Shown here: piece by piece, positions 755-63,906 of the stretch
Numbering within the stretch: position 1 is the first letter of the stretch
Layout: the number at the start of each line of letters is the position of its first letter
Assembly (NCBI GenBank): GCA_963826715.1
Contig: CAWGYA010000002.1
Location: 352,001-416,000 of the forward strand
Source of the DNA: Candidatus Bathyarchaeota archaeon
Lineage (GTDB): Archaea; Thermoproteota; Bathyarchaeia; Bathyarchaeales; Bathycorpusculaceae
DNA length: 64,000 nt
Reading direction: 5' to 3'
The notes under the pieces: generated by a model
The model's input: only the letters and a program-made list of their open reading frames with translations
Told to the model about the DNA's origin: nothing
The model's database searches: none
Made by a program: the position numbers and the translations under genes

Positions 755-832
755 GGGCCGGTAGCTCAGCACGGCTGGAGCGTTCGACTGATAATCGAAA
801 GGTCGGCAGTTCAAATCCGCCTCGGCCCACCA
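755..832 (+). tRNA. tRNA-Ile(GAT)
   Basis: GGGCCGG/TCGGCCC acceptor, GCTC/GAGC D-stem, TTCGA-CT-GAT-AA-TCGAA anticodon arm, TTCAAAT T-loop, encoded CCA. Confidence 0.95.
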
Positions 833-48705: not shown

Positions 48706-50130
48706 TTACGTCTCCGCGGCTTTGCGAAGTATATCCCTAAGCTGCACCGTGAGAACCGATAACTGATGATTCTCAATATCTCCAACTGCTGATATGTTAC
48801 CCGTACAAAGAGCTTCTCTGGACAGCAGCTGCTCAGGGTTTTCGCCTAGCGCCCGTATCATTTCTTTGATGGTATCAAGTTTGCTAATCTGAGTTTTCTT
48901 TCGTATTGCCAATCCTGCAGCGGCATATATAGATCGCATTCTGTCAATGCCTAAGCTCTGAATATCGTGGTAAGTATCAACTGTGTGACCCATAAAGTAG
49001 TCAACGTAATCGGGTTGCACGCCTAATGCAAGCATTTGGGTTTTGAAAAATTTGCGAATGCTGTGAACTCTTAGGTTGTAGAGGGTTCCAGTCTTGTTAG
49101 GTTTAATGAAACCTGCCTTAACGTAAAGGTCGTGAACGGTTTTTCTTAACTGTTTTGTGCTGATGCCTTTGGGGTTTCTGTGGGTTTCATCTCGGATTAA
49201 CGGGGATTCATCGGTTATGATTTCTGGCGGTATTTTATCGGTGCCTCTGCGGCGTTGATCAAAGTACAGTTTAAGGTAGTAAGTTGCTTCAGGTCCCAGA
49301 AACGTATCGTAGTCATGGTATTTGCCCTTGGTGATCTCTGCTTCTATATGCAGATGAATTGGTGTTATGTTGTCTTCGAGGTCTTCTTTGACATGGCTAT
49401 AGGTTAGCTTGGTGAAAGTTTCTTCTCGGAAGGCGCCTAAGGCAAGGCATGAAACTATGACTTCGCCTCTCAGGTTAGTTAACTCAAGCATTTTTGCGAG
49501 TTCATCAGGCTTTGGGGCTCTATCTTTGTAGATTACGCGTCTACTAAGAGGTTCGGATAATTCTATTTTTACTCCGTTGACTCGGTAGAAGGTTTTGACT
49601 GCTTTGATGTAGTTTTCTACTGACCCAGGTTTCAATCCGTCATCTTGGAGCTGTGCTAAATAGTCGCTTAGGAACCCAGCATGATTTTGTGTACGCTGGG
49701 GGTCAGGTATGTTGCCGACTGGTTTGAGGTCAGCTATTATCAGGTCGGGTGTGTAACCCAGCCATGTCGAGTACTTGTATATGTTGACGGTGTAAACTAG
49801 GCAGCTTTTGTGTGAGGCTGAACAGTGGCGAAGCAGGTATCGGGCCATTTTTAGTAAGCTCTGGTTGTCAAAGACGAATGTCAAAAGGGTTGGGCGGTCA
49901 CTTATGAAACTCCGTATAACATAGTCAACCAACCCTTTTTCTTTAGCATCGAGAACTTTGTTAAGATTAAGATTTACTGGCTTCTGTAGTTTCCAGTCAG
50001 TTAGGCTTTTTTCAATGCGGATACCAGTATCTTCTACTTGGATTGGCAGATTGAGGCTTTTGAGATCGTCAACCGTGAGTTGTGTTTCGCGAACGATAGG
50101 CGATGCTAGTGCTAATGTGCTGTTTAGCAT
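48706..50130 (-). CDS. tyrosine recombinase/integrase
   Basis: R (AFREE), K (TKGK), HSIR, MGH and Y (DTYH) catalytic set; SAM-like N-terminal domain. Confidence 0.92.
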   Translation of the reverse strand: MLNSTLALASPIVRETQLTVDDLKSLNLPIQVEDTGIRIEKSLTDWKLQKPVNLNLNKVLDAKEKGLVDYVIRSFISDRPTLLTFVFDNQSLLKMARYLLRHCSASHKSCLVYTVNIYKYSTWLGYTPDLIIADLKPVGNIPDPQRTQNHAGFLSDYLAQLQDDGLKPGSVENYIKAVKTFYRVNGVKIELSEPLSRRVIYKDRAPKPDELAKMLELTNLRGEVIVSCLALGAFREETFTKLTYSHVKEDLEDNITPIHLHIEAEITKGKYHDYDTFLGPEATYYLKLYFDQRRRGTDKIPPEIITDESPLIRDETHRNPKGISTKQLRKTVHDLYVKAGFIKPNKTGTLYNLRVHSIRKFFKTQMLALGVQPDYVDYFMGHTVDTYHDIQSLGIDRMRSIYAAAGLAIRKKTQISKLDTIKEMIRALGENPEQLLSREALCTGNISAVGDIENHQLSVLTVQLRDILRKAAET

Positions 50131-53584: not shown

Positions 53585-53755
53585 ATGCTTGACATTAAGA
53601 CGCTTGAGGGTTGGCTCTGGGACGCAGCCTGCAAAATCCGCGACCCCGTCGACGCCCCAAAATACAAAGACCACATCCTACCACTAATCTTCCTAAAACG
53701 CCTCTCCGACGTCTTTGATGAAGAAATCGAAAAACTCGCAGCTCAATACGGTGAT
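53585..53755 (+). pseudogene. hsdM: N-terminal fragment of type I R-M HsdM
   Basis: [32 protein letters not shown], then homology stops after ~57 aa. Confidence 0.85.
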
Positions 53756-53925
53756 TTTAGACCTTTTTCGTGTGCTTCGATTGCATGCACTAACCTTGCT
53801 TCCCGTGATTCTAAACGTGACATTCTCCACTGTAACAACGCTGACAATGTTTGAGGTTTTTTCTCTTTTTGTTTAAGTTTTTCAGGTACTTTTTTTACAT
53901 TTTGACTTGTACTTGGACTTGACAT
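53743..53925 (-). CDS. small basic hypothetical protein
   Basis: 60 aa, GGTGA SD upstream, abuts the hsdM breakpoint. Confidence 0.4.
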
Positions 53926-56733: not shown

Positions 56734-57004
56734 GCAGAATACCACTTAGTGCAGAGACATAGCCGTTTTGAGTTTTTTCTTTAAGCGTAAACCCCGAGGT
56801 ACGGTAGGGAAACGGTTACGCGTTTTCGGCTTAGGTTGTCACGTATTTTATTGTTTATTTTTTGTGTTGCCGCTTTGCTTGAGTGTCCCTGACCGGTTAT
56901 TTTCCAGTTTTTCATATCGATTAAGCAGTAGGTTATTTGTAGGTCGCTGAACTAATCACATTAGGGAACGCACACTTACCATATATGATACGAAGTTGGA
57001 ATCA

Positions 57005-58132
57005 ATGGCTGAAAAAAAGAATTACTACGAGAATTTAGGCATTCCAAAGGACGCATCCAAAGACGCGATAAAAGACGCCTACAGAAAACTAGCCATGCAA
57101 TATCATCCAGACAGAAACAAGTCTCCGGAAGCTGAAGAGAAGTTCAAAGAAATATCGGAAGCCTACGCAGTGCTGTCGAATGATGAGAAACGCCAACAAT
57201 ATGACAACTTAGGTAGCAATGGATTTGATCAAAGGTATAGTCGAGAGGACATTTTCCGAGGGGCCGACTTTGACTCGATATTTCGCGACATGGGTGTCAG
57301 TTCCGGCTTTGATGATCTTTTCAGTGTTTTCTTTGGGGGACGAGGCTTTGAAGGAAGACAAAGAGCAATCCGTGGACGAGATTTGGGCTACGAAGTATAC
57401 ATAACCCTTGAAGAAGCAGAGCGCGGTGTTGAAAAAGAAATTGAGGTCCCAAGAATTGAGCGTTGCCCAGTTTGTGGGGGTTCTGGAGCTACTCCAGGTT
57501 CTTCAGTGCAAACTTGCCCAGTATGCAAAGGTTCTGGAAAAGTCCAAAACACAATAAGAAAACGCTCTGGCACGTTTATACAAATCGCGCAATGCTCTGC
57601 TTGCAACGGCACAGGACAAAAAATTATTTCCCCATGCAGAAACTGCAACGGAAAAGGCCTCATAAAAAGGGAAAGAAAAATCACGGTTAAGATACCAGTT
57701 GGAATAAATGAAGGAAACCAGCTTAGGCTTGAAGGACAAGGAGACGCAGCCCAGGACGGAGGTCCCTCAGGAGATTTATACATAATGATTCACCTGATGC
57801 CTCATCAATACTTCAAAAGAGAAGGCGACGATCTCTTGTACAATCTATACATCAGCATTACGCAAGCATCATTAGGTGCGGAAGTCACCCTACCTGCAAT
57901 CCAAGGAAAAGCTACACTGAAAATTCATCCTGGAACACAACCTGGACAGATTCTAATAGTCAGAGGCAGGGGCATGCCGAGAATGGGCGGATATGGCAAA
58001 GGCGATCTACGCGTCCGTGTGAATGTGGTTGTTCCCAAAAAGCTAACTCAGCGCCAAAGTGCCCTTCTGGAAGAGCTGGCCAAAGAACTAGACCAAAATC
58101 TCGATAAAAGAGCGAAAGCCAATGTACTATAA
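57005..58132 (+). CDS. dnaJ: chaperone DnaJ (class A)
   Basis: J domain with HPD, G/F region, four CxxCxGxG, GDLY. Confidence 0.95.
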
Positions 58133-58165: not shown

Positions 58166-58627
58166 TTAAGGTTTGTATTGAAGAGAAACCGTTATTCGTT
58201 TACGACTTAAACTAGTTTTAATTTCTGAGTTAATTTTCGAGTTTTCTTTTCCTTTGCTTGCGTGACCAAAACGGGTAATCTTCCAATTTTTGAGATTGCC
58301 TCTGATTAACTGTGGGTTGCTTGTTAGAATGTAGAAGGGCGTTTTTGTTTGGGAAGAGTAGAGTTCAGCGATAAAGTTTAGGAACCGTTTGCCAACTCCG
58401 ACTCCTTGATAGTCCGGTAGCACAACTAGTCGGCTTACTCTGTAGTATTTTGCTTTCATTCTTACGCATGCGACAGCTATGAATGCTATGGGTTTCTCTT
58501 TATAGACTGCCGCGTAACACCGAACACCGGCACCCAAAGAACCGTTTAGATAATGATGCTGCCGAAACATCTTCCAAAGGGATGCGCCGCACCGATAAAC
58601 GCTGAGGTTAACGGGCGGCCGACTTCT
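58166..58627 (-). CDS. Mom-like GNAT acetyltransferase (-1 frame continuation of the ABC ATPase)
   Basis: W.MF.QHHYL, RVSRLVVLPDYQGVGVG, TSNP; frame is open back to the A9 run. Confidence 0.8.
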   Translation of the reverse strand, partial: RSRPPVNLSVYRCGASLWKMFRQHHYLNGSLGAGVRCYAAVYKEKPIAFIAVACVRMKAKYYRVSRLVVLPDYQGVGVGKRFLNFIAELYSSQTKTPFYILTSNPQLIRGNLKNWKITRFGHASKGKENSKINSEIKTSLSRKRITVSLQYKP

Positions 58628-59226
58628 TTTTTTTTGCTAAACTCCATTGTATCGGTGGAGAAAACCCAGTCAGGATCTAACCAATCAACCACATCATAGT
58701 GACAAGTAACAGCAATGAATTTCTTTGCGCTTCTGCGAACTGCCTTGCTGATGGCAAAGGCGCTGACTTTAGCTATTTCTCGATCGACAACGCTTGTGAA
58801 CTCATCAAAAACGATCAAAGGCTGCTCAAGACACAATGCTCTTGCGATGTCTACCCGCATCTTTTCTCCCTGACTCAAACAATCATAACCTTTTAGCCAG
58901 TCCGGTGGACTAGCAAACCCGACACTACAAAGTATCTTTGTAATCTCACCAGTTTCAAGCTCTTGGGGAAAATCATCAAGAACACACTTACCGTTGTAAT
59001 CAAATTCTCGGATGTAGGCTTCCGGGAAAAGCTGCTTAGCTATGCTGGTTTTGCCTGAACCGCTGCGCCCAACAATGACGCCGATTTGCCAATCAAAAGT
59101 TTCCAGTGGCAAATTGCCCTTAAACCGTTTCTCCAACTTTACGTCGTTTAGGGTGTAGCTGCCCACGACGCTCTGGGCTCGGAAGCTGTCGGATTCTTCC
59201 CATTTTTTTACTATGTCAAAATCCAT
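58546..59226 (-). CDS. stand-alone ABC-type ATPase
   Basis: GRSGSGKT, LSQGE, FDEFTSVVDR, VTCH, WL.PDW. Confidence 0.9.
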   Translation of the reverse strand: MDFDIVKKWEESDSFRAQSVVGSYTLNDVKLEKRFKGNLPLETFDWQIGVIVGRSGSGKTSIAKQLFPEAYIREFDYNGKCVLDDFPQELETGEITKILCSVGFASPPDWLKGYDCLSQGEKMRVDIARALCLEQPLIVFDEFTSVVDREIAKVSAFAISKAVRRSAKKFIAVTCHYDVVDWLDPDWVFSTDTMEFSKKKEVGRPLTSAFIGAAHPFGRCFGSIII

Positions 59227-59240
59227 TCTTGTCAGCTCCG

Positions 59241-59816
59241 CTAAAGTGTTAGGATTCTTAGTTTGAACCCCTGGGCTTTTAACTTCTCAAAATATTCTTT
59301 TTGTTGTGCCTCTGATTTACATTCAATTATGAGCTCGTAGGTTTCAGGAACCGAAAAAGAGACCTCTCGATCATCTACCTCTATAGGAAGCTTTTCGCCT
59401 ACGGATTGAAGGAATAACTTTAATTCCTCTTTCTCTCCCTCGTCAATTATGCGCAGGTACTCGGCACTATCCATCTCCCTGTTATGTTTGCCCCGTAGCT
59501 TGTTTAGCACCTGCCGAAGCAAACGGCGATCAACATCCTTAACTGGCAAGCGAATGACGCTGCACTCAGTCATACCAAGCTCCTTCATAGCCGTAACACG
59601 CTGCTGACCATCAGCCACCAAAAGCTCACTGTTAGTGACGACTGGAACGATGTCGCCCCATCGCTTAATTGAAGATTTTAAGCGGTCAAGCTGCATAAGA
59701 GTTAATCTGTTAGGGTTGTCTTGGTCAAACTTGAGCTCGCTGATTCTTACTCGCTCCGACATTGGAATTGGAATTTCTTTTTCATTTTCCACTGATTCTC
59801 TGCTAAGTACGCTCAT
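59241..59816 (-). CDS. ParB/Srx N-terminal domain protein
   Basis: NPN......L.SSI...G...PVV......VADGQQRV.A...LG. Confidence 0.88.
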   Translation of the reverse strand: MSVLSRESVENEKEIPIPMSERVRISELKFDQDNPNRLTLMQLDRLKSSIKRWGDIVPVVTNSELLVADGQQRVTAMKELGMTECSVIRLPVKDVDRRLLRQVLNKLRGKHNREMDSAEYLRIIDEGEKEELKLFLQSVGEKLPIEVDDREVSFSVPETYELIIECKSEAQQKEYFEKLKAQGFKLRILTL

Positions 59817-60595
59817 ATTTTCAAACTCTCCCTAAATGTTAATTGACAAATTTGGTCATTTTCCGATTTTTTCATAAACCAGCCGCACTTTTCAGCACAT
59901 GTTGGACATTTCTCTTTAAGGTAACGTGCATTACGTGCGTCACACTCCGCGTTCTCCGCTTGTTCTTGCTGTTCTTCTAATTCTTCCACCCTTGCTTGCT
60001 CAGCTGTCCTGTTAGCAGTTAACTGTTGAATATTCTGGGTTGTTTTGAAAACGTTATGTGCTTCACAGAAGCGATTAAAACTCTCAGGAGTAAATAAGTC
60101 ATGGTTCCAAGCCGCATAGACGGGGGCTAAGAGTCTTTCTTGTTCACCTTCACATAGTTTCCAATATCCAGGGGTTTTAAAGACTGCTATTTCTGCGTCG
60201 AATTGTTTTTTGAATTTGCGGGTTTCTTCTATTAGCCAATAGAATCGTGTGTAGAAGACCCAGTTGGCCATGGGGTCTTTTAGCGTAACAAAAGCATCTG
60301 TGAAGACTTGAAAAATCTCATATACTCTAGCCATAAACCGGCGGTTAGCTGCATCTACGATTGCTTGATCATCTGGTGACAGGGGGGTACAGGTGGTTTC
60401 TCCCCGATCGGCTGCTTGCTGCAATTCTTCTCCATAAGCCTCCAAGATATGGCTCGCTCGTCTATGTAACTCGTTTTCAGCTCGATCTAACTCTATGTCA
60501 CCGTTGTCCCATGTTATCTTTGTAGTGCCTTCGTGGGGAAGTTCAGGTAGGACATTTTTTTCTAATGCATGGAGTTTCCGGCTTAGGATATTCAT
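59813..60595 (-). CDS. hypothetical protein with C-terminal CxxC...C
   Basis: 260-aa ORF with ATGA overlaps on both sides. Confidence 0.7.
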   Translation of the reverse strand: MNILSRKLHALEKNVLPELPHEGTTKITWDNGDIELDRAENELHRRASHILEAYGEELQQAADRGETTCTPLSPDDQAIVDAANRRFMARVYEIFQVFTDAFVTLKDPMANWVFYTRFYWLIEETRKFKKQFDAEIAVFKTPGYWKLCEGEQERLLAPVYAAWNHDLFTPESFNRFCEAHNVFKTTQNIQQLTANRTAEQARVEELEEQQEQAENAECDARNARYLKEKCPTCAEKCGWFMKKSENDQICQLTFRESLKI

Positions 60596-60876
60596 TTCTT
60601 TTTATCCTCCGGTTTGGGTATTAATATGCTGTTTTTGAGCTTCTCCTCTAAAGTTATCACCCGAAGCTCCAACTCCTCATCCTTTAGCAAGGGACCATAG
60701 GCTGAAACTGCTGAAACCAAAACCCGTGCCCAACCCTGCTTTGCTTTATCGCTGTTTCCCTCGGAATGAATTTTTTTATGAGATAAACCTAATACACCGT
60801 CTAAAACACGAAACAACGTATTTCTACGCTCCTTTGTAGAACGGTTTGATGTTGGTTTCTTGGCGGTTTCAGCCAT
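60592..60876 (-). CDS. small helical protein (terminase-small-subunit-like tail)
   Basis: EELELRV..LEE coiled tail; first gene of the ParB operon. Confidence 0.6.
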   Translation of the reverse strand: MAETAKKPTSNRSTKERRNTLFRVLDGVLGLSHKKIHSEGNSDKAKQGWARVLVSAVSAYGPLLKDEELELRVITLEEKLKNSILIPKPEDKKK

Positions 60877-61427: not shown

Positions 61428-62153
61428 TTATGAATATTTTTCAAGTAATTCTTTGACTGCTTTGAGCAACTCTGCAGGGTTTTCTTTAAACCGTTCGTCT
61501 AATCTGAAATGCGCTGGTTCCATCACTTCGGGTCGGACTACCCGTATTTTATCTCTGATGGTGCTTATGCGAGAGGCAAGGTTCAATTCGGGATATATTT
61601 CATCGATGACAGCAATAACTACTGAGTCTTCAGGTTGCAGGACTACTTGAGGGTCAAACCAGTGAGCCGGTTCCATGACTTCAGGTCTCACAGCTATTGC
61701 CTTACCGTGGGTTACAGTAGTCAATGTTGGAATCGTAAGCGTTGGTTTTCTGAAATGCGCTGGTTCCATCCAATCCGTCTTAAGTTTGAGTTTTAATGCA
61801 TCAAACCAAATGGCATACAAACAATATTTGCCAACGGACGCTTTGATAGGAGTCTCTTTTAGGTTGCTAAGTGCATGATTTAGTTCGCTTTCAAAAAGGG
61901 TTCCTCGTAGATTATCGCCGCCAATGGTGAGTTTGTTTACATTTCCTTTTTCACCGATTTCAACAACGATAGGAATAGTTGTTGTTACGACGAAACCAAT
62001 TTTTCTTGAAACACTATCAAAAGCATTATCGATAGCTTTTTGGTATTTTTCCTTGATTATTTTGTAAATTGCAAGCAGGTCTTCGTATTGTTTTATGATT
62101 CCGGGGTGTGCAGGTTCCATCCAGTCTCTAAGTCTAAGATTTTTTTCAGCCAA
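61428..62153 (-). CDS. protein with four MEPAH repeats (putative radical SAM substrate)
   Basis: DWMEPAHP, DWMEPAHF, EVMEPAHW, EVMEPAHF; TTG start behind AGGAGGTGA. Confidence 0.85.
   Translation of the reverse strand: MAEKNLRLRDWMEPAHPGIIKQYEDLLAIYKIIKEKYQKAIDNAFDSVSRKIGFVVTTTIPIVVEIGEKGNVNKLTIGGDNLRGTLFESELNHALSNLKETPIKASVGKYCLYAIWFDALKLKLKTDWMEPAHFRKPTLTIPTLTTVTHGKAIAVRPEVMEPAHWFDPQVVLQPEDSVVIAVIDEIYPELNLASRISTIRDKIRVVRPEVMEPAHFRLDERFKENPAELLKAVKELLEKYS
61503..61770. repeat. 22-bp perfect direct repeat encoding MEPAHFR
   Basis: TCTGAAATGCGCTGGTTCCATC at 61503-61524 and 61749-61770. Confidence 0.9.
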
Positions 62154-62157
62154 TTTC

Positions 62158-63906
62158 TCACCTCCTTTGGTCTTCTTCTAATTGTTTTTTGAAGAAGTTA
62201 TATGGAATTACATATGGAGAAAGCCCCATCAAATCAAGTATGCCCGCTTGGGGACCAAGAGATTGACTTTGGAAGCTAGATTTGTCATTGATTGAAAGTA
62301 CCGAGCTTTCTAAGCCGCCATTGGCATAAATTGCGGGCATCATTTTTATCGCGTTATCCCTGTTTTTGTAAGCTTCTTCCATCCAGTCAATGATAGCTTG
62401 ACCCTGCAACCGCAGCACACTACTTTTCTTATCGATTTGTGTACGCATTTGCTGAGTAAAGTTGGCGATGGCTGCTTCATCATGATTTTCTCCAGAAATG
62501 AAATCGTAAATCACACTTAGCCAATGATATGTATCAAGATTTGTCTGTTTTATGAAATTCTTAACTTCACTTCTCAGAGTTTCAGACAATAGGTTAGGGT
62601 AGAAACGCCTTAGCAGTTGGAAGTAGAAATCCACCTGCATGTTGAAGTAATGCAATCCATAGTCACTGAAATTGCGGTCAAAGAACGCATAATTAGCGAT
62701 TTGATGGAATAATTCGCATTTTGAATCTGCAAGACGATAATCGAAGCCGAAATAACTCCCTAACAGACGGTTTTCGGCAGTTAGTTTTGCTTCTAAACCT
62801 GTGCCTGCATAAGCTTCTGCTCGGCAAAAGTTAAACGGATTGTCAAGGTGCCTTTCCATGAAACGAATATTAAGCAGCAAATCTGCCATGGATGCGTCCG
62901 GCTCAAACATCAGAAAATTATAAGCAACATGGATATTGAAATCGTTGAGTACGGTGAGTGCGTTGAGAGTTTGCTCAAGGGTTTGTATTCGGTTTAAATT
63001 ATTTAGTCCATTAGCCGAAGCGTTTTCAACTCCCAAGAAAACCCTAAATAAGCCCAACTCATCAAGGATTTTTATGGATTCTCGATCTATGCTTTCAGGC
63101 CTTGCTTTGATAGCAATAGCGATTCCTTCAACTTTCTCTTGCTTTAAACGGTCTCGAAGAAGTCTAAAACGCTCAATTGCTTGCTGCTGATTGGGCAGGA
63201 AGAAATTATCATCCTGAAAATTAAAAATTCTTATTCCGTGCTCAAAGTACAGTTGCTTCATCTCTGCAACGATGTTTTCTACGCTGCGATAGCGGAATTT
63301 CTTACCTCCAGCCTGATTATACCAAGCGTTAATGCTGCAAAAAGCGCAGTTCCGCCAGCAACCGCGGCTGCTTAGAATGCTGCCGATTTTTTTCCCGAAA
63401 TACTCATGGAAATGCTCCCTTTTTGGGAAAGGCAAAGAATCCAAGTTTTCCCTGTTCCCATTTCCTTTGTTTGTGGAGATTTTGCCATCTGTATTTCGAT
63501 AACATAAAGCTGGAACCGATGCGAGTTTGTCGAGATTATTTGCCAGTGAGACCATAAGGTCTTCACCTTCACCTAAAGCAACCGAGTTTATAGCGGGGTA
63601 ATCAGTAAGTAGCTGTTCGCTGTTGAAAGACGCGAAATGTCCCCCGGCAACTATGTGGCCCTCGTAACCCGACTCTCGAATGCTTTTGGCTAAGTTGAGA
63701 AACTCTCTGGCCCGGCTGGTGAACACCATAGATAAACCTATGATTTGGGGGGTAAAGTTGAGGATGTCTTGAACTACTTTTGCTTGGTCGTAGTTTGAAT
63801 TGAAAGGAATTACTTGTGTTTGATGTTTATGCGCTTCAAGTGAGGCGGCTATGTAGCGTAGCCCCAGATTTTCTTCAAGTTCAGCTCCTACAAGTGCTAT
63901 TTTCAT
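62158..63906 (-). CDS. cobalamin-binding (class B) radical SAM enzyme
   Basis: LGLRYIAASL, IGLS, VAGGHFAS, GEGE (B12 domain); SSRGCWRNCAFC; DDNF; GVE. Confidence 0.93.
   Translation of the reverse strand: MKIALVGAELEENLGLRYIAASLEAHKHQTQVIPFNSNYDQAKVVQDILNFTPQIIGLSMVFTSRAREFLNLAKSIRESGYEGHIVAGGHFASFNSEQLLTDYPAINSVALGEGEDLMVSLANNLDKLASVPALCYRNTDGKISTNKGNGNRENLDSLPFPKREHFHEYFGKKIGSILSSRGCWRNCAFCSINAWYNQAGGKKFRYRSVENIVAEMKQLYFEHGIRIFNFQDDNFFLPNQQQAIERFRLLRDRLKQEKVEGIAIAIKARPESIDRESIKILDELGLFRVFLGVENASANGLNNLNRIQTLEQTLNALTVLNDFNIHVAYNFLMFEPDASMADLLLNIRFMERHLDNPFNFCRAEAYAGTGLEAKLTAENRLLGSYFGFDYRLADSKCELFHQIANYAFFDRNFSDYGLHYFNMQVDFYFQLLRRFYPNLLSETLRSEVKNFIKQTNLDTYHWLSVIYDFISGENHDEAAIANFTQQMRTQIDKKSSVLRLQGQAIIDWMEEAYKNRDNAIKMMPAIYANGGLESSVLSINDKSSFQSQSLGPQAGILDLMGLSPYVIPYNFFKKQLEEDQRR

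Follow-up and report, generated by a model that had tools for sequence, protein, structure and literature searches.

Results

The ABC-GNAT locus and its neighborhood

On the minus strand of the 64,000-nt stretch of DNA analyzed here, referred to as the window (G000:C2:352001-416000, G000 being the source genome), a gene for a soluble ABC ATPase overlaps a second reading frame that encodes a GNAT acyltransferase domain, and a ParB/Srx-like gene lies directly upstream. The genes considered are the following:

58546 to 59226, minus strand: soluble ABC ATPase (to about residue 198) plus tail, 0-frame ORF of 226 aa (PF00005; phrog_11143 positions 11-201; model pLDDT 87)
58166 to 58627, minus strand: GNAT acyltransferase domain, -1 frame ORF of 153 codons (PF13508/PF00583; phrog_11143 positions 198-348, matched from residue 1)
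59241 to 59816, minus strand: ParB/Srx-like protein of 191 aa with a small C-terminal domain (phrog_498/620 and TIGR00180, below cut-off)
59813 to 60876, minus strand: two upstream ORFs (260 aa and 94 aa) of no known family (ORF calling, profile searches)
48706 to 50130, minus strand: tyrosine integrase of a nearby integrated element (profile matches), 8 kb from the ABC-GNAT module

Archaeal RNA polymerase genes were recognized by eye in the window, and the closest named relatives of the ABC ATPase gene are mostly Ca. Bathyarchaeia MAGs. Among 58 long loci of the Bathyarchaeia type, the ParB-like gene was found directly upstream of the ABC gene in 56, and the 260- and 94-aa ORFs accompany some copies (9 and 11 of the 58 loci, respectively, plus two other copies in the source genome). 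We infer from proximity only that the integrase belongs with the module. A DnaJ gene (window 56996-58132, plus strand) converges on the GNAT frame across a gap of 33 bp; because DnaJ adjoins the module in 1 of the 58 related loci, this boundary looks like an edge of the element. The source genome holds seven ABC copies, and an ABC match was obtained in 23 of 400 other genomes of the class, all within the source's own family. GNAT-only remnants with no ABC match also occur in the source genome (C2:28761, C2:338478-342188, C4:23946, C6:87497 and C8:1071055-1074835); together with the seven ABC copies, these read as many decayed insertions of the module in one genome.

Elsewhere in the window, an ORF of 241 aa (61428-62153, minus strand) carries four repeats of a MEPAH-containing motif and adjoins a B12-binding radical SAM gene (62158-63906, minus strand), a pair that could possibly represent a multi-core RiPP precursor and its maturase. 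A short ORF (53585-53854, plus strand) resembles by eye an N-terminal fragment of a type I restriction-modification M subunit, and tRNA-Ile(GAT) (755-832, plus strand) is the only tRNA found in the window.

The ABC and GNAT halves match phrog_11143 in order (E values of 2e-59 and 6e-33). A GNAT coupled to an ABC ATPase has been predicted to acylate a DNA base in PMC7824862, which cites phage pT24, and pT24 is among the homologues matched here. The ParB/ABC-GNAT module is predicted to acylate DNA. A terminase comes next in 2 of the 22 downstream ORFs scanned, neither of them beside this copy, and 20 of the 22 gave no PHROG match. A fold search with a natural fused homologue returned ABC-type ATPases only, among the matches listed.

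A candidate -1 frameshift site between the two frames

The junction of the two frames contains the following features:

58627 to 58635, minus strand: run of nine A (A9), reading AGC AAA AAA AAA GAA in the ABC frame
58633 to 58627, minus strand: in-phase slippery heptamer A_AAA_AAA, of X_XXY_YYZ form in the 0-frame phase
58620 to 58626, minus strand: 7-nt spacer from heptamer to stem (from the sequence)
58586 to 58619, minus strand: stem-loop, candidate 3' stimulator, with seven basal pairs between arms 58619-58613 and 58593-58586 (fold and subgroup conservation)
58546 to 58626, minus strand: 26-codon 0-frame tail, dual-coding with the GNAT start, ending in TAA at 58548-58546
58642 to 58645, minus strand: GGAG, 8 nt 5' of the heptamer, possible weak 5' stimulator (Glu-codon usage)

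One base back at the heptamer gives a 353-aa ATPase-GNAT product. The first-pass annotation had proposed a -1 frameshift at this position, and its A9 run, 7-nt spacer, hairpin, 26-codon 0-frame tail, 353-aa -1 product and junction peptide were all found as it described them. A run of A9 is not by itself rare, with three runs of nine among the 47 A/T runs of at least 7 in the window. Read-level run length had been suggested as a check and was addressed on contigs: among four public runs of one study, possibly including the source sample, contigs of two (X1 record 1 and X4 record 26) span the A9 without a gap and give no A10, which, taken alone, lends weak support.

Judged by folding energy, the hairpin of this copy is not clearly above chance (z of -0.30 for 57 nt, with 69 of 200 shuffles as good, and -1.37 for 45 nt). 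In a subgroup of 80 sequences, drawn from 111 equal-length junctions by the 5' arm only, each of the seven basal pairs is kept in 78-80 sequences, and no consensus fold was obtained for the remaining 31 or for all 111 together. For the 45 nt 3' of the site, mean z is -3.2 across 40 sequences of the subgroup and -0.4 across 34 others, with control positions close to 0. Within the overlap, conservation reaches 0.99-1.00 at six four-fold sites, compared with 0.42-0.46 elsewhere, and five of the six sit in or inside the hairpin. Because all six are second positions of the tail frame, selection on the stem and selection on the tail are not separable, and selection on the tail peptide can also account for the invariance of the stem. 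The first-pass annotation had suggested looking for compensatory stem changes; the stem is near-invariant in 80 relatives, and covariation is absent. The features that rise above chance are thus conserved ones: the phase and frame in homologues and the stem in the 80-sequence subgroup. The upstream GGAG was also weighed as a 5' stimulator; GAG accounts for 77 of 86 Glu codons at this site against a background of 0.54, but a different Glu column is as high as 0.84, so this element is at best a weak candidate.

The split is conserved in relatives

We gathered 601 loci, making 602 records with the window; 42 were unparsable and dropped, 560 were parsed, and 548 passed the core filter (L045 and L353, which have empty cores, were retained in some counts). 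Grouping at 95% identity gave 340 representatives. The conclusions rest on the later homologue scans, which queried the ABC core only and were blind to the junction. An earlier scan had yielded 119 homologues, all of 201-282 aa, among the best 120 of 4098 matches, with a query that contained the tail and was therefore biased; another early scan was partly likewise.

At an ABC-core identity of at least 70%, the GNAT lies in the -1 frame at 169 of 171 loci, and likewise at 117 of 118 in the scans whose queries contained no junction, although the relatives are kin and such counts overstate their independence. The two exceptions among the 171 are L032, which has A10 and is in frame, and L481, which has A8. 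The homologues are consequently not uniformly fused, and the conserved split at a slippery run, which the first-pass annotation had suggested checking, is present. Among the 169 close -1 loci, the run is A7 in 131 and A9 in 35. Five of the other copies in the source genome read as -1, and the sixth has the same site and tail. GNAT frames are mostly intact among the relatives, and some copies are decayed.

Among 117 -1 representatives at 60% identity or more, A_AAA_AAN is present in 114 (AAA in 107, AAG in 4, AAC in 3) and absent from 3, and the longest A run is 7 in 80. The Arg codon preceding the site ends in A in 80 of 80 cases, against a background of 0.32, and the distance to the tyrosine of the HYL motif is 80 nt in 111 of 114. 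Taken together, the comparison demonstrates, at the level of sequence, a conserved layout with selection on the signal and on both frames.

A selected tail in the overlapping frame

In this copy, the tail ends G-x-x-F-x-x-I-I-I and is followed by TAA. Split and fused genes alike keep the tail frame free of stops over 23 codons, in 336 of 337 representatives (184 expected), and in 334 of 337 it terminates immediately past the H-Y-L codons (about 182 expected). Control windows are open far less often, with the lowest values for GC-rich genes (33-62 of 86). Of 338 tails, 164 finish in ITI and 114 in III. Tail positions -1 and -3 are hydrophobic above synonymous expectation in all four groups, and position -6 in all but the type represented by Nonlabens phage P12024S. 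TAT, which makes Ile the final residue, is used in 84 of 86 GC-rich fused genes against a background of 0.31. These patterns establish that the tail frame is under selection in all four groups.

The tail is a coil with a pLDDT of 51-56 in the monomer model, in which no docking of the tail on its own ATPase was seen. The last residues of the ParB-like neighbor resemble the tail. With the P12024S type set aside, a pattern for the ParB C-terminal domain was found upstream of 119 of 148 -1 genes and 103 of 139 fused genes. Among P12024S-type genes, just 1 of 39 has this motif upstream, and they nevertheless keep the tail. The Gly at position -9 is weak evidence for mimicry because it is imposed by the GNAT Trp codon. 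That the tail may mimic the ParB-like C-terminus is offered as a lead only. The small C-terminal domain of the ParB-like protein (window 59241-59330, minus strand) also ends short upstream ORFs in Mu-like phages (L001, L018, L214 and others).

Other -1 lineages and a candidate +1 signal in fused homologues

The gene is likewise split in cultured phages of Oenococcus (Vinitor-27), Lactococcus (P335), Streptococcus and Enterococcus, whose annotations never join the frames. For the 44 remaining -1 representatives, the best site in phase is U_UUU_UUU in 8, A_AAA_AAA in 6, G_GUU_UUU in 6, A_AAU_UUU in 5, A_UUC_CCC in 5 and some other sequence in 8, and 6 have no recognizable heptamer; perfect heptamers occur in 22 of the 44 (11.5 expected), a weaker signal than in the archaeal clade. 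In Enterococcus phage 9184 (L122, 1459-2900), an A_AAA_AAG split lies between genes annotated as "DNA polymerase", and the GNAT-frame ORF itself is so annotated. In a quick, unrooted tree of 142 ABC cores over 144 columns, the archaeal clade (19 rows, support 99) and a U-rich clade (22 rows, support 95) form separate groups; fused and -1 states require 12 changes (shuffled mean 44), of which the well-supported branches force just 2. Several switches of recoding direction are likely on this tree.

Fused homologues in bacterial phages carry, at the same junction, an SD-like pentamer followed after 3 nt by CUU or GUU. The full motif is present in 112 of 180 fused representatives, against 0.81 expected from synonymous shuffling, and absent from 68; it has no match in 49,419 other codons of the same genes. 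A strict SD occurs in 127 of 180 (11.6 expected), and SD-[CG]TT pairs are exactly 3 nt apart in 111 of 121. The +1 hypothesis was formed on distant matches before further sequences were fetched, and the motif is found in 24 of the 29 earlier sequences and 86 of the 149 later ones. CTT is used in 42 of 57 and 31 of 35 genes of two clades (background 0.11-0.12), and GTT is dominant in another clade. The A-site codons in fused genes are sense codons (CGG, AGG, CGA, TGG and CAA), and in all nine listed cases where the next base is G, the Leu codon ends in A. A +1 shift from the fusion enters the frame that is frame 0 in split genes, and 179 of 180 fused representatives (about 96 expected) keep this frame open as far as the fixed stop, which is TAA, TGA or TAG. 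No start codon in frame 0 or +1 was found within 4-12 nt of the SD in the 112 motif-bearing representatives.

Other fused genes differ at this point. Of the 39 genes nearest phage P12024S, one has the full motif and the SD is mostly absent; all 39 have CGG or AGG at the junction (background 0.01 and 0.07), and 20 have CTT_CGG. Bacteroidota rely little on SD pairing. A10 is present in 11 fused representatives, for which slippage or phase variation is no less likely than a ribosomal shift. Two methanogen-bin copies (L509 and L513) have no clear signal and retain the tail, and Aeromonas phage PX29 lacks both the CUU and the stop. In two loci (L035 and L500), the GNAT lies in the +1 frame at a T or A homopolymer, with tail and stop kept; these may be run-length variants or errors. 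A gene annotated as a formyltransferase follows the fused ABC-GNAT gene in two phages (L115 and L116), and none lies beside the window's copy.

Discussion

Probable recoding at the ABC-GNAT junction

We propose, with a probability of roughly 0.85, that a programmed -1 ribosomal frameshift at this locus produces a short ATPase and an ATPase-GNAT protein. Ribosomes would translate the ABC ATPase and arrive at A_AAA_AAA with two Lys tRNAs; the majority would stay in frame 0, read the 26-codon tail and terminate (226 aa), and a fraction, slowed by the stem 7 nt downstream, would slip back one base, re-pair on AAA AAA and enter the GNAT frame (353 aa). That ribosomes shift here, how efficiently and to what end are matters we infer from the sequences compared. 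The slip would set the ratio of short to long subunits, which might be fixed or tRNA-sensitive. The first-pass annotation had spoken of a ratio of free ATPase to ATPase-GNAT; two products remain the best reading, but the short form, being the ATPase with a selected 26-residue tail, is not a free ATPase. Since ABC ATPases function as dimers, mixed dimers with fewer GNAT domains would be the simplest purpose. In the most likely scheme, ATPase dimers or oligomers of mixed composition, in which ATPase domains outnumber acyltransferase domains, would act with the ParB-like protein to acylate the DNA of the element.

The first-pass annotation had preferred a -1 frameshift over transcriptional slippage, phase variation and homopolymer error, and the relatives favor the same choice. 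Slippage of the polymerase on the A-run would add one A to some mRNAs and thereby create the fusion, and it is compatible with the A9 of this copy and of 35 of the 169 close -1 loci, as well as with the 11 fused representatives that have A10; T. thermophilus dnaX employs it (PMC5009743). The slip is nevertheless better assigned to the ribosome than to the polymerase because most relatives (131 of 169) have A7 only, locked to the codon phase, and other lineages use sites that are not homopolymers, such as A_AAU_UUU and G_GUC_CCC. An A7 run is shorter than those usually needed for transcriptional slippage. We regard slippage as an improbable source of the fusion in general, although it may contribute in A9 and A10 copies. 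Translational coupling of a separate GNAT from its own ATG (58570), with no shift at all, appears more improbable still. A start codon of some kind is found at the position of the window's ATG in 80 of 114 representatives (ATG in 73), named phage records annotate two CDS, and ABC clusters are classed as coupled in PMC3711429; however, 34 of the 114 have no start codon there, and just 11 have one at least 20 codons before the tyrosine. This ATG, the first and only one in the frame, falls within the GNAT domain, and in fused homologues it is preceded by the first strand of that domain and by an invariant Trp. The -1 frame is thus coding from the shift site onward with no usable start of its own, and coupling leaves the phased heptamer unexplained. 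Finally, a homopolymer assembly error, a pseudogene or phase variation at the DNA level is scarcely credible: L032 and L481 exist and some copies are decayed, but a single locus among 171 is in frame, GNAT frames are mostly intact, contigs bridge the A9, and the split is present in cultured phages too, among them Lactococcus P335 and Oenococcus Vinitor-27.

For the fused homologues, we consider it probable from the junction sequences that most are not simple fusions and that a +1 exit signal would divert ribosomes into the same tail, keeping both products family-wide. The -1 site could be real and the SD-like motif merely a pause or an RNA element between domains, with no +1 product. The sense codons in the A site agree with this, as do re-pairing that is usually on UUC rather than UUU and P-site codons that in some cases (CAC, CAT and GCT) re-pair poorly. 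The near-universal opening of the +1 frame to its fixed stop and the lack of a start codon 4-12 nt from the SD speak against a mere pause, which we hold to be unlikely while granting it an appreciable chance. With the +1 exit retained as the preferred reading, a broader picture is slightly favored, in which the family, across archaeal and bacterial mobile elements, always makes ATPase plus tail and ATPase-GNAT, while the means of recoding has been replaced several times. The devices would be A_AAA_AAN plus a stem for -1 entry in Bathyarchaeia elements, U-rich heptamers for -1 entry in Firmicute-type phages, an RF2-like +1 exit on sense codons, a +1 exit at CGG or AGG that needs no SD, and A10 runs. 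The tail would then be a functional C-terminal motif, possibly mimicking the last strand of the ParB-like partner, and the ratio may be coupled to tRNA supply during infection through +1 sites at rare codons.

For the definition of archaeal -1 signals, the archaeal clade supplies more than a hundred natural variants. If the +1 reading holds, the family would add, beyond prfB, a +1 shift that is driven by an SD and takes place on sense codons, and a case in which the shift direction varies and both products stay. Whether a gene is annotated as one fusion or as two CDS, it probably yields two chains, and cloning one form alone may overlook the functional complex. Each signal is represented among cultured phages (Lactococcus P335, Arthrobacter EastWest and Pseudoalteromonas SL25).

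Relation to known systems

The nearest precedent is dnaX, in which one ATPase gene yields a short and a long product (gamma and tau) through a -1 shift, the site being an A-rich heptamer accompanied by a stem; some bacteria obtain the long product by the shift, and T. thermophilus relies on slippage (PMC5009743). In contrast to dnaX, the short ABC-GNAT form has a selected 26-residue tail, the appended domain is a GNAT, and the direction appears to flip, from -1 entry to +1 exit, across archaeal and bacterial mobile elements. The statement in the first-pass annotation that few archaeal cases are documented agrees with a 2021 review, whose text gives fucA1 of Saccharolobus solfataricus as the only reported archaeal -1 frameshift, at A-AAA-AAT with a putative stem-loop (PMC8211752). 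The fucA1 split is limited to two strains, whereas the ABC-GNAT split is clade-wide and its short product is a complete ATPase domain. The A_AAA_AAR cluster of magnesium chelatase likewise has a conserved -1 site in an ATPase gene of bacteria and archaea, but the gene is unrelated, and the portions of PMC3711429 available to us describe no +1 counterpart; two of the three supplements of that paper contain no match to the present cluster, and the remaining one may list it. In the available text on the phrog_11143 acylation system (PMC7824862), neither recoding nor a short form is mentioned, and a search of titles and abstract openings, with subscription papers outside its reach, found no paper on recoding in the ABC-GNAT family.

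The +1 signal, a feature of the fused homologues and not of the window's copy, resembles two known sites. An SD spacing of 3 nt stimulates +1 shifts and one of 9-14 nt stimulates -1 shifts, and CUU is the shift codon of both RF2 and Ty1 (PMC5009743). The internal SD of the fused homologues lies 3 nt before CUU, as in RF2 (prfB), and their next codon is often CGG or AGG, recalling the CUU_AGG_C of Ty1 (PMC5009743). Unlike RF2, the fused homologues have no UGA stop in the A site and no release-factor autoregulation, and a shift would bring early termination, not a completed protein; they would be RF2-like in their working and not members of the RF2 class. What seems new is the +1 signal at the same junction in fused homologues, and with it a direction of shift that differs between lineages.
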